Origin: an uncultured Alphaproteobacteria bacterium
GTDB lineage: Bacteria > Pseudomonadota > Alphaproteobacteria > RF32 > CAG-239
Reading direction: 5' to 3'
Assembly (NCBI GenBank): GCA_944390275.1
Contig: CALXPL010000006.1
Span: forward strand, 28,734 to 92,733
Length of the DNA stretch: 64,000 nucleotides
In this document: one piece after another, positions 10,882 through 20,387 of the stretch
Numbering within the stretch: position 1 is the first letter of the stretch
Layout of the letters: each line of letters begins with the position of its first letter
The notes under the pieces: generated by a model
The model's input: the letters and a program-made list of their open reading frames with translations, nothing else
Told to the model about the DNA's origin: nothing
The model's database searches: none
Program-made: the position numbers and the translations under genes

Positions 10882-12165
10882 ATGGTGAAATATTGGCATT
10901 TTTGTTTATTATCGGCAACAAGTTGTTTGCTCTTGTCAACAGATAATCTTGATGCAACTGTATTATCATCCATCCCTTCCGAATCGAGCAAACATCACTC
11001 ACACATCCACACTTTATCACACCTCGATTTGTCTCGTTTTTCTCCGTATCTTTTCCTGAAACAATCTGGTTATCAATCTTATAGAATGGCTTCGGTGTGT
11101 TTTATAACCGATGCCGGAAATTGCTCGGGACAAGAATTCAGTAATCTCGAAACACCGGATGGTACAAACCGCCCTGATTATGATACTATACCTGAACAAT
11201 GTCGTGATGCAGGATATACTAAAACGTCTTGTCCGGCAGGGCAACATTTAGTAAATCCTTGCCCTTCGGACAACCGTTATTACGAACGTTGTGAATGTAA
11301 TGAGAATTTAACCGAAATTTGTAATATTCCTTATTATGGGGTTGGATCGTCTTGTGATGGTAAATATGAAAAATGTGAACGAGATGACGACCGCGCTTGT
11401 AAAGAAGAAGGTTATCCTTTAACGGGAAGCTGTCCGACTTTGCAAGTTCCCAATCGTCGTTGTCCTTATGATTCCAATTATTACGATAAATGTGTTTGCC
11501 AATCAGGATTAATCAGTTGCCCGTCGCCGCAAATCGGAGTTGGACCGTCTTGTGGCGGAAAATATCAATCTTGTCAATGTCCGAGCAATTATAAATCTTG
11601 TGATTGCGGACCGGCTGTGGGAGCTTCTTCTTGTACCATTAACGGCAAAACCACTTACTCAGATTGTAAGGCTTGTTGCGATGATACTTGCCCAAGCGGT
11701 TATTCAAAAACCAACCCCGGAGGCTGTTATGATACAAGAACCACCGGATGTGGAAATACCTGTTATAAATCTAAATCTTGTTGCTCTTCATCTTATCGTT
11801 TTACATGCACTGGTTCACATGAAATACCCCCTGATGATGAATTATCCTGCGAAGGAAAATATCCTAAATGTCGATGCGATAGTTCTTCCTTGACATGGAA
11901 TATTAATTACGAAAGATGTCTCGCCCTTGGTCATCACGAAGTATATATTTCATCTGGAAAAGACTTATTTACCAATAACGGTAAAACTATTTATACATAT
12001 TCAGGTTTACCAATGAGATGTACAGCATGTCCTGAGAAACAATTATCATCTTCTACTGTTGTAGTTACAACTGTTGGCGGTTTTGATGAAGCAAAAGAGT
12101 TTATAAACAATTGGTCTGCAAAATGGTTCACAACAAATGAAAGTTGTTCTTCTGAATGTTTATAG
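10882..12165 (+). CDS. secreted cysteine-rich modular protein, paralogue 1
   Basis: 427 aa. Strong RBS (AAGGAGGA). N-terminus MVKYWHFCLLSATSCLLLSTDNLDA. Repeated modules of the form C..GYTKTSC...CP...YY..C.C and GVG.SC.GKY..C.C give 50 or more Cys. The first ~75 codons and the 5' leader are near-identical to the gene at 50631. Confidence 0.6.
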   Translation: MVKYWHFCLLSATSCLLLSTDNLDATVLSSIPSESSKHHSHIHTLSHLDLSRFSPYLFLKQSGYQSYRMASVCFITDAGNCSGQEFSNLETPDGTNRPDYDTIPEQCRDAGYTKTSCPAGQHLVNPCPSDNRYYERCECNENLTEICNIPYYGVGSSCDGKYEKCERDDDRACKEEGYPLTGSCPTLQVPNRRCPYDSNYYDKCVCQSGLISCPSPQIGVGPSCGGKYQSCQCPSNYKSCDCGPAVGASSCTINGKTTYSDCKACCDDTCPSGYSKTNPGGCYDTRTTGCGNTCYKSKSCCSSSYRFTCTGSHEIPPDDELSCEGKYPKCRCDSSSLTWNINYERCLALGHHEVYISSGKDLFTNNGKTIYTYSGLPMRCTACPEKQLSSSTVVVTTVGGFDEAKEFINNWSAKWFTTNESCSSECL

Positions 12166-12468: not shown

Positions 12469-12837
12469 CTAAAAAATAATTTTATAACATATAAAAAGCA
12501 TCATGACCATTATTACTCTTGAAACATAACGCAAACAGATACTTTTATCATATTCTGCTGAGCTTTTCCATGTTCCGCTAACTAAAACAAAGCTATAAAA
12601 CACAAAAGCTGCTAAACATCCTAAGTAACATACTATTAATAATAATAGGCTTGTATTCATGTGCAACGGGTGAAAATATCTTGTAAAATACACCCATAAA
12701 CTTACTCCCGCTAATTTGTGGGCTAAAAGACTGCCAAAAAAACGAATTATAAAAACGGACACTATTAATCCTAAGACACCAAACTTCCAAAATGTATCGG
12801 TTAAGCTGAATTCTCCGTCCATCAATTTTTTTAACAT
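12469..12837 (-). CDS. hypothetical small membrane protein
   Basis: 122 aa with 3-4 TM helices. No family recognised. Confidence 0.4.
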   Translation of the reverse strand: MLKKLMDGEFSLTDTFWKFGVLGLIVSVFIIRFFGSLLAHKLAGVSLWVYFTRYFHPLHMNTSLLLLIVCYLGCLAAFVFYSFVLVSGTWKSSAEYDKSICLRYVSRVIMVMMLFICYKIIF

Positions 12838-12914: not shown

Positions 12915-14297
12915 TTAACAAGTTGCTACATTTGCCGCCAACCCTCCTAATGAGGTTTCTTTATATTTATTTTGCATGTCTTTACCTGTATCGTACATCG
13001 TTTTTATTACACTATCTAATGAAACTGTATGTTGCCCCTTTCCTGATAAGGCTAAACGTGTCGAATTTACTGCTTTGATTGCTCCCATGGCATTTCTTTC
13101 TATACAGGGTATTTGAACCAAGCCACCGACTGGATCACAAGTTAATCCTAAATTGTGTTCCATCGCGATTTCCGCAGCACTTTCTATTTCTGATAAACTT
13201 CCTCCTCTTGCCGCTGTTAAACCCGCTGCTGCCATTGAACAGGCTACACCAACTTCCCCTTGACACCCGACTTCTGCTCCTGATATAGACGCATTGCTTC
13301 GATATAAACAACATATTGCCGAAGCGGTTAACATAAATATTTTTAGTCCTTCTTCTATGGTGTATGGCGATTTTACATGTGCAAACCGTTCAAAATAGCG
13401 ACTTACCGAAGGAATTACTCCTGCCGACCCCATCGTGGGGGCTGTTACTATTTGTCCCCCTGATGCATTTTCTTCGGCAACGGAAAATGCCCATAAATTT
13501 ATCCAATCAATTATTTGTAACGGATCGTAATTATTCTTTACAAAATTTTCTTCTAACTGTTTATATATTTCCGGGGCGCGGCGGCGAAGATTTAGTCCTC
13601 CCGGCAAGATTCCTCTTGTCTTCATTCCTCTATCTACGGCATTTTGCATAATTCGATAGATTTTCATTATACCTTCATCCGTATATTCCTTCCCGTGAAT
13701 TGCACATTCATTCTCATATATTATCTCGGAAATGTTTTTATTTTCTTTTTCACAAATCTCCCTAAGCTCCTTATAGGAATTAAACTCATACGGAACATTA
13801 TACGGAACTCTTGATATGCGGCGCGTAATTTCATCTTGTCGCGCTATTGTTCCTCCGCCTACCGAAAAATATATTTCATTCAATAATTCTTTACCCTCTT
13901 TATCGTAGGCTTTAAATTCAAGACCATTCGAGTGCTCTTTTAAAAATATTTCTTTTTTAAAAATAACATCTTTGTCTAAACTAAAATTTATCGCCTTTTC
14001 TTGGTTTAAATGCAATATATGATCTCTTTCAACCGCATTTACATATGGAATTTGAGGATCAATTGCTTCTGCTTCCAACCCCATTAGTCCATAGACTATG
14101 GCTTTTACCGTGCCGTGTCCTATTCCTGTTAGAGCTAATGATCCATAGAGTATTACTTCAATTTTTTCTACCTTATCAAAAAATCCTTGTTGATGAAGGT
14201 TATCTACATACCTTTTGGCTGCTCTCATTGGCCCTACCGTATGCGAACTTGAAGGACCAATTCCTACTGAAAATATTTCAAAATAGCTGTAATACAT
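12915..14297 (-). CDS. sdaA: L-serine dehydratase (single-chain, Fe-S dependent)
   Basis: [27 protein letters not shown]..., 460 aa. The [17 protein letters not shown]-terminus is diagnostic. Confidence 0.85.
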
Positions 14298-16003
14298 TAA
14301 AAATATGTCCTTATTCTTTTATAGGGTTTGTTTCCTAAACGCTTGTGAACTGATGCTATATATTCATGAAGATCATCCCAATTTGTATAGGCTTCTATAA
14401 ATTTTTTCGCTTCTTCCGGAGATTTTGATAATTGTATTCTTATTGTTTCCTCTAAAATCTTATGCATAACCTCGGGCAACTTTGTAAAGTTTATTACCAA
14501 CTTGTTCTCGGCATCAAAACTGATAGCTCCATGCTTCAGTAAAAAGTTAAAATGCATTAAATCTCCTAAACGATGAGGTTCTTCTGTCTTGGCTTTTAAC
14601 AATAAACGAACTATCCATGTCGTATAAACTTCTTTCAAGGTTTGTTCACTAATTATTCCTGCTTTCACATATTCCGGCATAAATGTTATGGAAACGACAT
14701 CGGCCTTATTTTCTTCAATTGTATGCTTATACAAGCCTAAAGCATTTTGATAGCTGCTGTCTGGTCCTAAAGAGTGGCCGTTTTCGTGTCCAATAACAAA
14801 AATGTGTTCTGCTTCCGGATTAAAATACTTATAAAAATCCTGATGAACAAGTGCTTTTAACAATTCTGAATCTCTTTTTTTATCCCTTGTCATGCGAACC
14901 TGACGGTGATAGACATTTCTTCGTCCACCTCCGGTTTTTATGGATAATTTATCATTATTCGGTAAATTTTGCGCCGTGGTTATCGCTCCTCGGCATTGGG
15001 CATAATCTCCCGTTAACGCTATCAAATCAACATCAACCATCGTTTGCTTTATTTCGCTGCCTTGAGTTACATTTTGGCTATATTGTTCTGAATACGGCAT
15101 GAGTTTTGCCAACTTTTTCATATAATCTTTGAATTTCAGCAACAGTGCCGTTCCTTCTTTATTGACTACTCCAACTCTTACTCCGAGCATATCTTTTGAA
15201 TTTACTTCAATTCCTCTTGCGGCAAGCATTCCTTGCAATTTCGAATTTTCACACAATGTCGCACTCATCTTATCATCATAATTTTCTCGGCTTAATGTAA
15301 ATTCAATATCCGTATTTTGCATTTGTGCCCAATGCTTATCTGCCAACATGTCCATATCTTCATTATTTTGCAGCAATGCTTGTGCTTGCCAACCGAGATA
15401 ATCTTTAAACAGAGAATCCGTTGTATAATGTGCTGCCAATTCCAACAAGTTGGCAATTTCCGAAAATTCTTTTGCAAAATATTCCGTATAATCTATTGCC
15501 TTCAGTTCGTTTCCTTGACGGCGAACCATTGTTCTGACACTTAGTATTTTTTTTACTTCTTCATCCTTACCTTCTTTAAGCATATTTTCTATGATGCGGT
15601 GAAATTCCTCAACGCTTAAATCTTCAGGATAAAAATTTCTTCCCGGTTTGGCACTAACATCTTTAAATATTTCAATATGCTTTGCATCTATTCCATTACT
15701 GCCTTCCACTCCATTAAGTGAATTAAATAAAATCAATGCTTTGGCTGCATAACTGCTACTCGTTGCGGCTTCTTCCAACCCTTGTTTTAACAGTCTATTT
15801 AAATGATGATCTTGTTCTAAGCTGACATTATTGATAATTTTTCCCGCTTTTACCAAATATTCCAGAGCTTTTTTATCTCCTTCACTTAGATTTTGATATC
15901 CTGGAAATTCTTTGCTTATCAATTCTATATCTATCATCTGATTGTTAATGATGTCGTCTAACTGCTCTTCCGTGAGTGCTATTTCATATCCTTTTATTTT
16001 CAT
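14297..16003 (-). CDS. zinc metallopeptidase, M49 (DPP III)-like with pentapeptide HExxH
   Basis: 568 aa. FVIGHENGHSLG is followed 22 residues later by EENKAD (HExxH...EExxAD). This pattern matches the short-spacer variant of bacterial DPP III-like enzymes. Stop/start overlap with sdaA. Confidence 0.5.
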   Translation of the reverse strand: MKIKGYEIALTEEQLDDIINNQMIDIELISKEFPGYQNLSEGDKKALEYLVKAGKIINNVSLEQDHHLNRLLKQGLEEAATSSSYAAKALILFNSLNGVEGSNGIDAKHIEIFKDVSAKPGRNFYPEDLSVEEFHRIIENMLKEGKDEEVKKILSVRTMVRRQGNELKAIDYTEYFAKEFSEIANLLELAAHYTTDSLFKDYLGWQAQALLQNNEDMDMLADKHWAQMQNTDIEFTLSRENYDDKMSATLCENSKLQGMLAARGIEVNSKDMLGVRVGVVNKEGTALLLKFKDYMKKLAKLMPYSEQYSQNVTQGSEIKQTMVDVDLIALTGDYAQCRGAITTAQNLPNNDKLSIKTGGGRRNVYHRQVRMTRDKKRDSELLKALVHQDFYKYFNPEAEHIFVIGHENGHSLGPDSSYQNALGLYKHTIEENKADVVSITFMPEYVKAGIISEQTLKEVYTTWIVRLLLKAKTEEPHRLGDLMHFNFLLKHGAISFDAENKLVINFTKLPEVMHKILEETIRIQLSKSPEEAKKFIEAYTNWDDLHEYIASVHKRLGNKPYKRIRTYF

Positions 16004-16004
16004 C

Positions 16005-17405
16005 TTAATCTATCTCCACTGTGTAAAAACGGTACACTTTAATTTTATTTGACCAATATATCGGACTCATTCCGGCTTTTAATTTTAATTCGTTTAAAAA
16101 TCTTTGCTTATCGGGAAACTCTTTCCATTCCGATGGTAAAAAGACTGCCTGTCTGTTTCCTGAACGGATTACAATTCCATCTTTTTCAGGAACTAATTTC
16201 TCTAACAAATCTTGCTCATTTTTATATTTTATTTCTTCAAAACCACTTAACAAAGAAATCGTTATCGTTATATCTTGCATTTCTTGCGGCTTAATATTTT
16301 CAAAGCGTTTATCTTCTTTGGCCGCAACATATATATTTTCCGATATATTTTTTGCTAAACTCTGTGTTGCAAGAACAGAACCACTCCAGGCTCTTTTCTG
16401 CCCTTGTTTTTTCAGTGTAATATAAACGGCTCCTTTATCAAATATTGAATCTTTATAATCTTTTCGAGACGGTTTATATTTTTTTCCTTCAAATACCGCT
16501 TGCGTTAGAGCCTCTTTTGCTATTGTTTTAATTTCTTCTTCATGCACTCGTTTGAAGTCTTGCAAAGATTTTATATCATCTGCCAATGTTCGCAATGCAT
16601 CTTGATTAATTGACATATCTTTTTCTCTTGTATCTTTTTTTTCTTTTTGTCCTGATGAAAAATCTATAATTTTGGGAAGAAAATCATTCTGTTTCGCTAA
16701 AGCTATTATTGTTTGTTCTGCTATTTCATTATTTATATTACCTTCGTTCTCTGATAAATCTGATACAAAAATTATTAACGTATTTATATTTTGTGTATAT
16801 TTATCAACGGCTTCTGCTAACTCTTGTGATGTAATTCTCTTATAAACAAGAGGAATAAACTGAAATTTTTTTAATTTTTTATTGAGTATCTCTAATTGTT
16901 TTTTAAAAACTTTTAATTGTTGTTCATTTGTTTTTAATACTTTCACATTATTTTCCGAAACCAAGGAATCAACCTTTGTTTTCTTGTCTTTTATATCAAC
17001 TAAACTTATTCCTTGTTTTATTTCCGGATCTATTGCGGGCGCAATCATTAGAATATTCTTTATCTTTGTCTGATTTGCTGATAATAAATTGTATGCATAT
17101 TCCGCAATTGTTGCACTATAAATATCTTCAATCTCGGGAACGACCATAATTCTTGGAATATCATATACCTTTTTTTCTGACGATACACTTTTTGTTGCTG
17201 AACTATAAAAAACTCCGGCAACTACCGTGGGACGATTTCTTTCCTCATAATCATCCGGCAAGGTATAGTTGGTAATATATTTATTATTTGAAGCCATGTG
17301 CTCACTTAAACTGCAATAATTTATTGCTAAAAGTGCCATAACAGCTGCACTTATCATTAACCACCGCAATATTTGTTTATAATCTATTGCAAATTTTGAG
17401 TCCAT
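16005..17405 (-). CDS. membrane-anchored MEMO1-like / AMMECR1-like fusion protein with substituted signature residues
   Basis: 466 aa. N-terminal TM helix (WLMISAAVMALLAINY). PTVVAGVFYSS, VPEIEDIYSATIAEYAY and IIFVSDLSEN parallel the MEMO1 motifs (R.P.VAG.FYP, PHAGY.YSG.VAA.AY, SsDlSHy) but with His replaced by Glu. The C-terminal 150 aa, GAVYITLKKQGQKRAWSGS...DKRF...ISLLS...VFLPSEW...LKAGMSP, parallels AMMECR1, with LRGCIG replaced by KRAWSGS. Confidence 0.5.
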   Translation of the reverse strand: MDSKFAIDYKQILRWLMISAAVMALLAINYCSLSEHMASNNKYITNYTLPDDYEERNRPTVVAGVFYSSATKSVSSEKKVYDIPRIMVVPEIEDIYSATIAEYAYNLLSANQTKIKNILMIAPAIDPEIKQGISLVDIKDKKTKVDSLVSENNVKVLKTNEQQLKVFKKQLEILNKKLKKFQFIPLVYKRITSQELAEAVDKYTQNINTLIIFVSDLSENEGNINNEIAEQTIIALAKQNDFLPKIIDFSSGQKEKKDTREKDMSINQDALRTLADDIKSLQDFKRVHEEEIKTIAKEALTQAVFEGKKYKPSRKDYKDSIFDKGAVYITLKKQGQKRAWSGSVLATQSLAKNISENIYVAAKEDKRFENIKPQEMQDITITISLLSGFEEIKYKNEQDLLEKLVPEKDGIVIRSGNRQAVFLPSEWKEFPDKQRFLNELKLKAGMSPIYWSNKIKVYRFYTVEID

Positions 17406-17448
17406 ATTTGTTCCTTTGTTCCTTTGCTGCTATTTTAGTGTCATCTTT

Positions 17449-18126
17449 TTAATTTTTTGCTAATTTTAATAATTTTAATAATTTTGAAAAATTTTCTACC
17501 CAAATTATTCTGCTATCTTTTTCTTGTATTCCATCTCCCCATATTGATTTATTGATTCGGATTGGAAGAGCTCCTATTGACAAAGCAACTGAACTATCTT
17601 GCGGACTATCTCCTATTATCCAAACATTATCTCTATTTATTTCTTCCGGTTTTAACAGTCCCTTTAATGCGTAAAGAGCATGTTGTCCATCTGGTTTATC
17701 CGCCGGAGCTTCATGACCACACACTATTTTATAAAAATTATTTTTTTCAAATAACAAAGGCAGTTCATATTCCAACAAGCACCTTTCTTTGTTTGTCATT
17801 ATTATTAATCTAACTTTATGCTCTAAAAAAAATTTTATTACCTCCGGAACCTTATCAAACGTTGTTATTTTATTTATAACAATTTGTTTATATATTTCTC
17901 GATATTCTTCATAAGCCTCTTTTGCTTTATCTCCAAAAATCAACGGAAAATTGTCTTTAAAAGACAAATTTCTATTTCTTTTTTCTTTACTAACTTCCCA
18001 GCATGGTAAGCCATAATTTGCCAAGACTTTATCAACTGCGTAAACCAATGATGTTCGACTTTCCGCTAATGTATTATCCCAATCAAATAGAACATACTTT
18101 AATTTTGATATATTTAACTGCTGCAT
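17449..18126 (-). CDS. HAD-superfamily phosphatase
   Basis: KYVLFDWDNTLAESR carries the DxDxT motif I. The downstream motifs are consistent with a HAD hydrolase. Confidence 0.7.
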   Translation of the reverse strand: MQQLNISKLKYVLFDWDNTLAESRTSLVYAVDKVLANYGLPCWEVSKEKRNRNLSFKDNFPLIFGDKAKEAYEEYREIYKQIVINKITTFDKVPEVIKFFLEHKVRLIIMTNKERCLLEYELPLLFEKNNFYKIVCGHEAPADKPDGQHALYALKGLLKPEEINRDNVWIIGDSPQDSSVALSIGALPIRINKSIWGDGIQEKDSRIIWVENFSKLLKLLKLAKN

Positions 18127-18655: not shown

Positions 18656-18674
18656 ATTGTCCTTAAACGATTTC

Positions 18675-18918
18675 CGGATATATCTGTAAATTCTGCAAGG
18701 CGGTGGTCAGGCTATCCCAAGAAAATCATCTAAAGCTATGACCGCTGTTTTGATATACAAAACAACTCGCACCGACCACCATATTATAAGTGGAAACGTA
18801 CGTTTGTTAAACAACAATAGACGGTACCGATATCTTTTAGGCGGTATCGGCACCGCCGCTTTAGACTAAGAGGAATTCTTGGGGTTCCTCTGAACCGCTT
18901 TCAGGTTCATGCTTTTTA
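18675..18918 (+). ncRNA. candidate structured small RNA (unclassified) in GC-enriched intergenic region
   Basis: Local G+C is clearly above the flanks. Several perfect hairpins are present (GGTGGTC...GACCACC, GGCGGT-ATCGGC-ACCGCC, GGTACCGATA...TATCGGCACC). A terminal TGAACC-GCTTTCA-GGTTCA stem is followed by TGCTTTTTA on the + strand. No match recognised to tmRNA, RNase P, SRP or 6S consensus. The strand is uncertain. Confidence 0.25.
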
Positions 18919-19103
18919 TAATAACTATCATTATAAATCATTTATGAAATATAACAATAGTGGCAGTTACAAGATAATTCTATCTCTAGACTATATCTGT
19001 TGGTACTTCTGCCTCTTTACCAACTCGTTTATGATATATCACTAATATTTGAATTGCAATAACAAACTTCAACATTCTTTTTGGTTGTGAATATTTATTA
19101 TTC

Positions 19104-20387
19104 CTACACGTTTTTTCCTATTTTTGTTTTTCCGTTCATATACGGTTGTAATTTGCTCGGAATATTTACCGTTCCATCTTCATTTTGATGACATTCTATA
19201 AATGGAACAAGAGCTCTTGGTGTCGCAATTCCCGTATTATTTAATGTATGAACAAATTTAACTCTGTTATCTGAATTATCTCGATATCTTAAATTTGTAC
19301 GGCGAGCTTGCCAATCGGTTATATTGGAACATGAATGCGTTTCTCTGTAACAATTTTGCGACGGAACCCATGCTTCCAAATCGTACTGACGGTATTTCGG
19401 GGCTCCCATATCTCCGGTACAAATATCCAATACTTGATAAGGGAGTTCCAAGTCTTGCAAAACTTCTTCAGAAATGGCCAACAAGGTTTTGTGCCATTTA
19501 TCACTTTCTTGGATATCATTTTTGCAAATAACAAACTGCTCTGTTTTCATGAATTGATGGACGCGAACCAAACCACGCGTATCTTTTCCTGCGGCTCCTG
19601 CTTCACGACGAAAACATGGTGAAAATCCCGCGTAGAGAATCGGTAGTTCTGCTTCATTTAATATTTCATCCGCTCTCAGTGAGTTTAAAATAAGTTCTGC
19701 CGTTCCTGACAAATAAATATCATCTGCCGGCATGTAATAGATTTCATCACGTGAAAAAGGCAAATATCCTTGTCCGTACAAAGGTTTCTCTTTTGAAATT
19801 GATGGAACGGTTATAACTGTAAAACCATGCTCTCGCAATTTGTCTAACACCATCATATGCATGGCCAATTCTAATTTTGCTAAATCATTTTTTATCGCAT
19901 AGGTACGAGAACCGCTTACCTTAGCAATTCTTTCCATTTCTGACCAATCATTTAATTCCATTAGTTCGACATGGTCGCGTGGCTTAAAATCAAAATGTGG
20001 TATTTCTCCGACTTTTCTAATTACGACATTGCCGCTTTCATCTGGTCCGACGGGACATTCTGGGCTCGGCATATTCGGCATACGAAGCATAATTTCATCA
20101 AACTTTTTTTGTTCAACTTCTAATTCTTCCAATTCTTTCTTTAATTCTTCACCTAACGCTTTACTTTTAGCAATAATTGACGGGCGTTCTTCCGTCGATG
20201 CTGATTTTATAGAATTACTCAATCTATTTTTTTCTTCAGCTTTGGCTTGTGATGATGTTTTTAATTTATTTATGGAACCATGCAATGATATTAATTCATC
20301 CAAATTTATTATCTTTGAGTATCCTTTTTTATCCAGTCCTTCTTGAATTTTTTCTTTATTTTCAATAATAAATTTTATATCCAACAT
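19104..20387 (-). CDS. serS: seryl-tRNA synthetase
   Basis: 427 aa. N-terminal coiled-coil arm plus class II core (FSPCFRREAG..., GTAELIL...). Confidence 0.9.
   Translation of the reverse strand: MLDIKFIIENKEKIQEGLDKKGYSKIINLDELISLHGSINKLKTSSQAKAEEKNRLSNSIKSASTEERPSIIAKSKALGEELKKELEELEVEQKKFDEIMLRMPNMPSPECPVGPDESGNVVIRKVGEIPHFDFKPRDHVELMELNDWSEMERIAKVSGSRTYAIKNDLAKLELAMHMMVLDKLREHGFTVITVPSISKEKPLYGQGYLPFSRDEIYYMPADDIYLSGTAELILNSLRADEILNEAELPILYAGFSPCFRREAGAAGKDTRGLVRVHQFMKTEQFVICKNDIQESDKWHKTLLAISEEVLQDLELPYQVLDICTGDMGAPKYRQYDLEAWVPSQNCYRETHSCSNITDWQARRTNLRYRDNSDNRVKFVHTLNNTGIATPRALVPFIECHQNEDGTVNIPSKLQPYMNGKTKIGKNV

Follow-up and report, generated by a model that had tools for sequence, protein, structure and literature searches.

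The locus and the layout of its product

The gene described here lies on the minus strand of a 64,000-nucleotide (nt) stretch of DNA from an uncultured alphaproteobacterium (contig CALXPL010000006.1, GTDB lineage RF32; CAG-239), the whole of which we call the window. It encodes a protein in which an N-terminal transmembrane (TM) helix is followed by a Memo half and an AMMECR1 half, and it stands in an operon between genes for an HAD-family phosphatase and a DPP III-like (M49-like) metallopeptidase (Table 1). The window protein has lost the signature residues of both halves; such copies are called degenerate below, and the orthologues that keep these residues canonical. Their joint loss, in the window and elsewhere in the clade, is the main subject of this work. 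The genome nearest to the window is L001 (UQAB01000011.1, 'uncultured Azospirillum sp. UMGS63'), with a canonical fusion.

Table 1. Features of the fusion gene and its operon (window positions; AF2, AlphaFold2; pLDDT, predicted local distance difference test; aa, amino acids).
Feature	Position	Strand	Residues and remarks
Whole coding sequence, degenerate membrane-anchored Memo-AMMECR1 fusion	16005..17405	minus	466 aa; stop codon 16005-16007
N-terminal TM helix	17304..17363	minus	~aa 15-34; hydropathy and charge statistics, 80 orthologues
Juxtamembrane segment NYCSLSEHMASNN...ER.R	17226..17321	minus	aa 29-60; conserved
Stripped-down Memo/LigB-like core	16656..17225	minus	aa 61-250; metal triad gone
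P90-E-I-E-D94	17124..17138	minus	at PHAGY motif site
S215-D-L-S-E-N220	16746..16763	minus	at SADLSHY site; C244-bearing segment deleted just downstream
Linker and long inter-domain helix	16488..16655	minus	aa 251-271 disordered (pLDDT <50), then helix aa 274-306; AF2
AMMECR1 domain	16008..16487	minus	aa 307-466 (Pfam match 295-462); AF2 pLDDT ~90
K337-R-A-W-S-G-S343	16377..16397	minus	at LRGCIGS site; predicted catalytic Cys replaced by W340
AMMECR1 C-terminal lobe	16008..16271	minus	aa 379-466; 80% identity to canonical sister L001
HAD-family phosphatase	17449..18126	minus	225 aa; upstream, 43 nt before the fusion gene
DPP III-like (M49-like) metallopeptidase	14297..16003	minus	568 aa; downstream; syntenic at 78/80 loci
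GGAG Shine-Dalgarno sequence (SD) of the DPP III-like gene	16014..16017	minus	within the last fusion codons
L-serine ammonia-lyase (SDH, alpha+beta)	12915..14297	minus	start overlaps M49-like stop by 1 nt
Multi-TM protein	12469..12837	minus	122 aa; no family match; syntenic downstream in most loci

The single N-terminal TM helix proposed in a preliminary description of this DNA is supported by hydropathy over 80 orthologues and by the AF2 model of the window fusion, in which the helix spans aa 9-37. In the adjoining segment the motif NYCSLSxHxxSN is conserved across the clade orthologues, and N29, S39, N40 and R58 are kept across all degenerate lineages. The mean number of Lys and Arg residues around the helix is 3.6 in the N flank and 1.4 in the C flank (n = 80 orthologues), and this bias suggests, by the positive-inside rule of thumb, an N-in/C-out orientation with the domains in the periplasm, the point that the preliminary description had left to topology prediction. 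A lipoprotein signal was considered and rejected by inspection, the conserved L-N-Y-C being unlike a lipobox.

The Memo half has lost the metal site of MEMO1

The profile scores of the Memo half are low: aa 62-229 reach 23.0 bits against PF01875 (cut-off 27; profile positions 4-187 of 269 covered), and TIGR04336 is matched at 22.4 bits, under its cut-off of 26. Despite these sub-threshold scores the Memo assignment is secure in both profile and fold, because about 35 database homologues bearing both Pfam domains align with the window fusion end to end, and because the family profile matched human MEMO1 (2e-26) in the PDB, together with three archaeal AMMECR1 structures. When the family profile was aligned to human MEMO1 by hhalign, the probability was 99.4%, and the Memo half is still folded in the AF2 model (pLDDT 75-86).

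In human MEMO1 the ligands of Fe(II)/Cu(I) are H49, H81 and C244, and H131, D189 and H192 lie nearby (Dolgova et al., PMC11081632). These residues were mapped by a HMMER alignment of a canonical orthologue with the MEMO1 crystal chain (chain index + 3 = residue number) and, a second time, by hhalign of the family profile with a human MEMO1 sequence; this sequence matches the PDB alignment at residues 11-201, and the Cys of the family's S-C-G-A aligns to position 244. The canonical C-terminal Memo segment, searched alone against the PDB to place C244, gave no match, and hhalign placed it. H49 corresponds to E91 of the window protein, H81 to I125, H131 to K165 and H192 to E219; D189 is kept as D216, and C244 is deleted. 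The 2-His-1-Cys metal site (H49/H81/C244) is absent from the window protein. The preliminary description had every conserved His replaced by Glu or Asp, which holds for H49 and H192 and fails for H81 (Ile) and H131 (Lys), that is, for two of the four.

Comparison of the AF2 secondary structure of the window protein with a model of the canonical protein P0005 (Memo 167 bits, AMMECR1 148 bits) located four deleted Memo elements: a helix that follows VAGxFYP, the TPLG β-hairpin, the C244-bearing helix with its loop, and the terminal VVGYGAW strand. The window fusion therefore has 466 aa and not ~520.

The AMMECR1 half keeps its fold and lacks the predicted catalytic cysteine

The AMMECR1 half is recognised without difficulty: aa 295-462 match PF01871 at 5.6e-34 (117.5 bits, cut-off 25), TIGR04335 is matched at 148.6 bits (cut-off 99), and the two-lobed AMMECR1 fold is present. 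The MEMO1-like and AMMECR1-like identities proposed earlier have thus stood up to profile searches, to the comparison of the family profile with the PDB and to AF2 modelling of both halves.

The predicted active site of AMMECR1 consists of the near-invariant, exposed Cys of RGChG and of DxRa (Balaji & Aravind, PMC2034487). In a residue survey of 83 full-length orthologues this Cys was found in all 71 canonical proteins and in none of the 12 degenerate ones. DxRF is kept in the window protein (D365/R367/F368) and gone from most other degenerate lineages. The loss of signature residues from both halves, noticed in the preliminary description, is confirmed by the mapping onto MEMO1 and onto RGChG.

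The C-terminal lobe has been described as forming the cleft's floor and proposed to contact the substrate (Balaji & Aravind, PMC2034487). It is kept to a striking degree, with D409, G410, G416, R418, Q419, L423, P424, W427, F436, L440, K441, G445, P448, W451, F460 and E464 retained in seven of seven degenerate lineages.

Loss in the two domains is coupled and recurrent

Seventy-one of the 83 surveyed orthologues are intact at every one of these sites (metal triad, H131/H192 and AMMECR1 Cys). In the other 12, H131/H192 and the AMMECR1 Cys are both gone; mixed states do not occur (0/83). Ten of the 12 degenerate orthologues have lost the metal triad as well, while L006 and L011 keep it.

Losses were counted on a neighbour-joining (NJ) tree of the adjacent, linked DPP III-like gene. 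On this tree the degenerate copies are those of the window, L088, L089 and L090, the pair L006 and L011, L038, and the clade of L043, L051, L059, L069 and L071. The groupings (L001, L015, L089), (L002, L090) and (L006, L011) have bootstrap values of 93%, 86% and 98%, respectively, and monophyly of the window with L088, L089 and L090 has 0%. Given this scattered placement, the joint loss of the Memo and AMMECR1 sites would have occurred in at least seven independent events, if loss is irreversible.

The degenerate copies differ in the extent of decay. In L038 and L089 the key His and Cys residues are all replaced with the surrounding scaffold motifs still recognisable, and these two look like early decay stages. 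The Pfam Memo scores form a series of 167 (canonical), 72, 60, 29 and 23 bits (window), with no match in two lineages. The replacements also differ: over the seven lineages H192 has become E, A, R, A, N, L and G, and H81 has become I, A, S, P, N or P or has been kept, while the D189 equivalent (D216 in the window protein) is kept in nearly all lineages. Both halves had been called catalytically remodelled in the preliminary description, and this we do not uphold: the replacements differ between lineages and four Memo elements are deleted, therefore loss and not redesign is indicated.

Selection on the degenerate copies and accelerated divergence of the window gene

In degenerate clades the ratio of nonsynonymous to synonymous substitution rates (dN/dS) is approximately 0.08-0.10 over the gene as a whole and 0.10-0.15 for its Memo core; at similar dS, degenerate pairs have 2-4 times the dN of canonical ones. 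Where the adjacent gene is at least 95% identical, the fusion is 93% identical in canonical pairs and 75% in degenerate pairs. The degenerate Memo cores contain no stop codons, compared with 10-21 expected in composition-matched random sequence.

Kept and lost sites were mapped over 131 columns at least 93% conserved in the canonical proteins, scored in the seven degenerate lineages. The lost columns are those of the Memo metal site and active site, loops included, and, in the AMMECR1 half, the Cys (kept in 0/7 lineages), D405 and the Arg of DxRF. All seven lineages keep N29, N40, R58 and F66, which lie close to the membrane, and nearly the entire AMMECR1 C-lobe. Purifying selection in the sister degenerate lineages and this retention of sites suggest that the window gene is not a pseudogene. 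The strain variants P0002 and P0004 differ from the window gene by nonsynonymous changes only, in 3-4 codons, a number too small for a dN/dS estimate.

The window copy has diverged far faster than its surroundings. Its protein is 42-47% identical to that of L001, compared with 93% for seryl-tRNA synthetase (SerRS), 91% for tryptophanyl-tRNA synthetase (TrpRS), 89% for SDH, 84% for the DPP III-like protein and 68% for the HAD phosphatase. Codon-level omega between the window and L001 is undefined because dS is saturated, and ratios of branch dN (window branch to L001 branch) are given instead, from a three-taxon comparison with L002 as outgroup. The ratio is 5.5 in the Memo core and 3.3 in the AMMECR1 N-lobe, and 1.2 in both the TM/juxtamembrane segment and the linker; the neighbouring genes range from 0.6 to 2.5. 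The genomes closest to the window by the fusion protein are also the closest by the M49-like gene, therefore the divergence was vertical and in place, and horizontal replacement of the fusion gene was ruled out on the same ground. Proteins 99-100% identical to that of the window are encoded on at least 24 contigs, which come from several samples.

The G+C content (GC) is lowest in the neighbourhood over the fusion gene, 0.30 at window 16001-18000 and 0.28 in the Memo core; the same segment has a GC of 0.43-0.52 in close relatives, a wide compositional spread for genomes that share 87-93% identity in SerRS. Compared with window 18656-20387, the strain variants L081 and L084 differ by 3-4.6% in SerRS and by ~10% in the spacer between SerRS and the helix-turn-helix (HTH) gene, and by 0.2-1.1% only across the HAD, fusion and DPP III-like genes. 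The excess in SerRS and the spacer points to a recombination tract confined to that place, with no bearing on the fusion gene.

The anchored fusion is the norm in a clade of gut Alphaproteobacteria

A scan of one genome per species gave 171 fusion loci, and the best 80 were analysed for synteny and topology. Every host among these 80 is an uncultured gut alphaproteobacterium, labelled 'Azospirillum sp. UMGS/CAG' or 'Proteobacteria bacterium CAG:495' (human), 'Candidatus Scatocola' (chicken) or given as ruminant metagenome-assembled genomes. Nearly all 80 loci share the order TrpRS/SerRS/(HTH)/HAD/fusion/DPP III-like/(SDH)/122-aa membrane protein, and an N-terminal hydrophobic helix is present in all the clade fusions analysed. 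The TM-anchored fusion in an HAD-fusion-DPP III-like operon is the clade norm and is not peculiar to the window gene. Fusion and membrane tether had been presented as special to this locus, which the 171 loci contradict, as do the 71 of 83 orthologues that are fully canonical; what the preliminary description had proposed to look for in other genomes, the same fusion together with the M49 peptidase, was found, the M49-like gene being syntenic at 78 of the 80 loci. Fusions of Memo with AMMECR1 were themselves described as early as 2007 (PMC2034487).

The remark that no radical-SAM gene is nearby was confirmed. The radical-SAM neighbour of protein P0039, validated as a TIGR04337 enzyme at 466 bits, was used as a tblastn probe for an AmrS-type gene against the window and 84 loci (1.5 Mb), and the best match had E = 0.27; no CxxxCxxC motif occurs among the window open reading frames (ORFs) of at least 120 aa. 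The TIGR04337 neighbour that belongs to the three-gene AmmeMemoRadiSam system is thus missing from the window locus. L055 (~19372) and L038 (~19405) carry, on the plus strand ~9 kb from the fusion gene, ORFs of ~235 aa with GCPWRCPFC, a motif typical of glycyl-radical/NrdG-type activases; these were rejected as AmrS homologues, having no significant match to the TIGR04337 probe.

The distant fusion P0040 has a signal-peptide-like N-terminus and keeps the metal triad, with H131, H192 and the AMMECR1 Cys lost. A NUDIX gene follows it (L086 1559-1993, L087 2678-3112), and 6EOM, the structure that matches the window's DPP III-like protein, was deposited as a 'MutT/NUDIX family protein'; there may be a recurring association of Memo-AMMECR1 with Nudix-DPP III, or this may be coincidence.

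Literature searches for 'AmmeMemoRadiSam' gave annotation mentions in unrelated papers only, those on bacterial AMMECR1 biochemistry gave nothing, and those on RF32 gave community-profiling papers only.

The operon and the neighbouring genes

The tight operon noted earlier (HAD, fusion, M49-type peptidase, L-serine dehydratase) is confirmed, with a 1-nt gap between the fusion stop and the DPP III-like ATG (16001-16003) and then a 1-nt overlap with the SDH gene. In both L088 and L090 the fusion gene overlaps the DPP III-like gene, whose translation is probably coupled to that of the fusion gene.

The DPP III-like protein has no M49 match in Pfam or NCBIfam, and the hexapeptide HEXXGH is absent. 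Against the PDB it matches 6EOM (Caldithrix abyssi DPP III) at 3e-30 over aa 37-540 and 5ZUM at 3.8e-12, and it carries the pentapeptide zinc motif HENGH (aa 406) and, as the second zinc motif (EExK/RAE/D), EENKAD (aa 430), the latter conserved in 75 of 76 orthologues. On the strength of these matches and motifs it is therefore an M49-like peptidase of the pentapeptide type, and the protein represents an under-annotated M49 subfamily universal in this clade. The Caldithrix DPP III is likewise of the pentapeptide type (HEISH).

The 122-aa membrane protein, whose orthologues are 31-80% identical, is a possible membrane partner of the fusion. In L006, L024, L035, L037, L038, L040, L041, L046, L050, L051, L055, L059, L063, L066, L072-L074, L076, L077, L088 and L090 the SDH gene is absent and the 122-aa gene directly follows the DPP III-like gene. 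Whether the fusion is degenerate or canonical does not clearly correlate with this absence.

No terminator-like sites were found on the minus strand between 12,200 and 19,200, and a promoter scan gave 29 sites against 31.8 expected, a chance level, and was not used. Adjacency is weak functional evidence at this locus, because the whole neighbourhood, tRNA synthetase genes included, is syntenic across the clade, and the tight coupling of the fusion and DPP III-like genes would be the sole specific functional hint. On the plus strand (window 10882-12165) lies a gene for a Cys-rich protein of 427 aa with a hydrophobic N-terminal segment, repeated CP/CxC-type motifs and no Pfam match.

Discussion

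We consider it moderately probable that the window gene encodes a membrane-anchored pseudoenzyme, devoid of the ancestral chemistry and maintained for a role other than catalysis. The ancestral protein would have had two separable functions. One would be catalytic, with the Memo metal site and the AMMECR1 thiol needed jointly, and would be dispensable and repeatedly lost; the other would be non-catalytic and borne by the membrane anchor and the AMMECR1 C-lobe. The window protein would retain the latter alone: at the inner membrane it would bind, and not turn over, a ligand or partner, with the Memo remnant as a structural spacer. Its synthesis would be in fixed proportion to that of the DPP III-like peptidase, to which it would be translationally coupled and which is a candidate partner. 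A periplasmic location of the domains would account for a subfamily working without a radical-SAM activase. The corresponding claim for the subfamily as a whole, namely a periplasmic, radical-SAM-free fusion in which metal site and thiol are one coupled unit and the C-lobe with the anchor is an indispensable second function, is offered as a tentative and rather doubtful proposal.

Several points weigh against this interpretation. The dN/dS values come from other degenerate lineages at saturated dS (1.3-2.5) and are approximate, dN being nonetheless far below dS; between the window and its nearest genome dS is saturated too, which leaves 3-4 strain codons to speak for selection on the window's own branch. 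The conservation at the extreme C-terminus (..VEI) could in part reflect the SD embedded there, through a constraint on nucleotides. The count of separate losses depends on the NJ tree of one linked gene, in which the placements of the window and L088 are weakly resolved (41-58% bootstrap). The positive-inside rule is the only source of the suggested topology, and conservation is the one line of evidence that points to non-catalytic binding. Finally, the acidic replacements of the PHAGY loop (EIED in the window, PENQ in L088, ADDE in L089) could form a new cation site.

This last point leads to the alternative that the window protein is a neofunctionalised enzyme, in which E91, E93, D94, D216 and E219 form a new carboxylate metal site (e.g. 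for Mg, Mn or Ca). The replacement of both H49 and H192 by Glu and the further acidic residues in the same loop fit such a site, as do the acid-rich PHAGY replacements in L088 and L089 and the nearly general retention of the D189 equivalent. We regard it as unlikely: the catalytic-site replacements are non-convergent over the seven lineages, the elements that shape the pocket (the one bearing C244, the TPLG hairpin and the terminal strand) are deleted, and the Memo core is the fastest-evolving part of the protein, not a newly constrained one. Improbable, too, is a functionless relic whose frame stays open only because the downstream DPP III-like gene needs translational coupling. The tight junction, the SD inside the fusion coding sequence and the gene overlap in L088 and L090 are what such a relic would have; the fall of the GC to 0.30 over the gene (0.28 in the Memo core) resembles relaxed selection, and the strain variants have no synonymous change beside 3-4 nonsynonymous ones. 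Coupling constrains stops and frameshifts, however, and not amino acids, yet dN/dS is ~0.1 in the degenerate sister lineages, at least 30 C-lobe and juxtamembrane residues are kept in seven of seven lineages, and the C-lobe remains 80% identical to L001 at saturated dS, with an AF2 model that is still confident.

It is very unlikely that the fusion is an ordinary AmmeMemoRadiSam component whose radical-SAM partner is encoded elsewhere in the genome. Its AMMECR1 half does exceed the TIGR04335 cut-off, and soluble fusions elsewhere adjoin a TIGR04337 enzyme, but the residues presumed to carry the chemistry are gone from both halves, no AmrS homologue was found in the 64-kb window or in the 1.5 Mb of loci from 84 relatives, and the likely periplasmic side would keep the fusion apart from a radical-SAM enzyme in the cytoplasm. 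An error of sequencing or assembly, or one aberrant allele, has nothing in its favour beyond the canonical state of close relatives. It is refuted by the recurrence of the protein, identical or at 99% identity, on at least 24 contigs that derive from independent samples and assemblers, and by in-frame deletions together with ~250 amino-acid differences from L001. The preliminary description had named as its own undoing that relatives retain canonical His and Cys residues and that this copy is just a sequencing variant; relatives do retain them, while the variant is real, as those contigs and at least six other degenerate lineages attest.

The most interesting result lies beyond the window, in the clade-wide coupled loss with one lobe and the anchor always kept. 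Joint loss, never of one site alone, is evolutionary evidence that both sites act in one process, whether or not a radical-SAM partner is nearby, and the constant retention of the TM anchor and the C-lobe points to a separable, cysteine-independent function. The degenerate copies, if correctly read, would be natural knock-outs of the catalytic unit and would provide the first genetic dissection of both domains. Canonical proteins of the L001 type and those of the window type, differing in defined residues, make a natural experiment that translates into concrete constructs. The label 'AmmeMemoRadiSam system protein A' meanwhile reaches proteins that are incapable of the presumed chemistry. Taken alone, the window gene is a single degenerate representative of a family still uncharacterised, from an organism not yet cultured, and its immediate impact is moderate. 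Conservation of Memo (MEMO1) and of AMMECR1 extends from archaea to human, and both have disease links; we know of no established biochemical activity for either, nor of any bacterial ligand or partner.

Comparison with known systems

The closest comparison is with the canonical fusions of the same clade (L001, P0005), which share with the window protein the operon, the TM helix, the juxtamembrane motif, the domain order and the C-lobe; they keep H49, H81, H131, H192, C244 and the AMMECR1 Cys in ~520 aa, whereas the window protein has lost them all. Human MEMO1 (7KQ8/7L5C/3BCZ) has H49, H81 and C244 where the window protein has Glu, Ile and a deletion, and only the latter is fused to AMMECR1 and tethered to the membrane. 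The archaeal AMMECR1 proteins PH0010 (1VAJ), MM0484 (1ZQ7) and ST0229 (1WSC) have the RGChG Cys in place of the window's Trp.

The AmmeMemoRadiSam system (TIGR04335/04336/04337) comprises the same two domain families as the window fusion, and the coupled loss supports a functional link between these families. The window fusion differs from the system in being membrane-anchored and devoid of the catalytic residues. The soluble A-B fusion P0039, from another lineage, adjoins a true TIGR04337 enzyme, unlike the loci of the window clade.

Pseudoenzymes are well known, for instance the pseudokinases and the iRhoms derived from rhomboid proteases. Like these, the window protein is an enzyme-like homologue without the key residues, with the fold kept and with purifying selection seen in sister lineages; unlike the typical case, 'dead' is defined here by residues, and two fused domains have been inactivated together, repeatedly.

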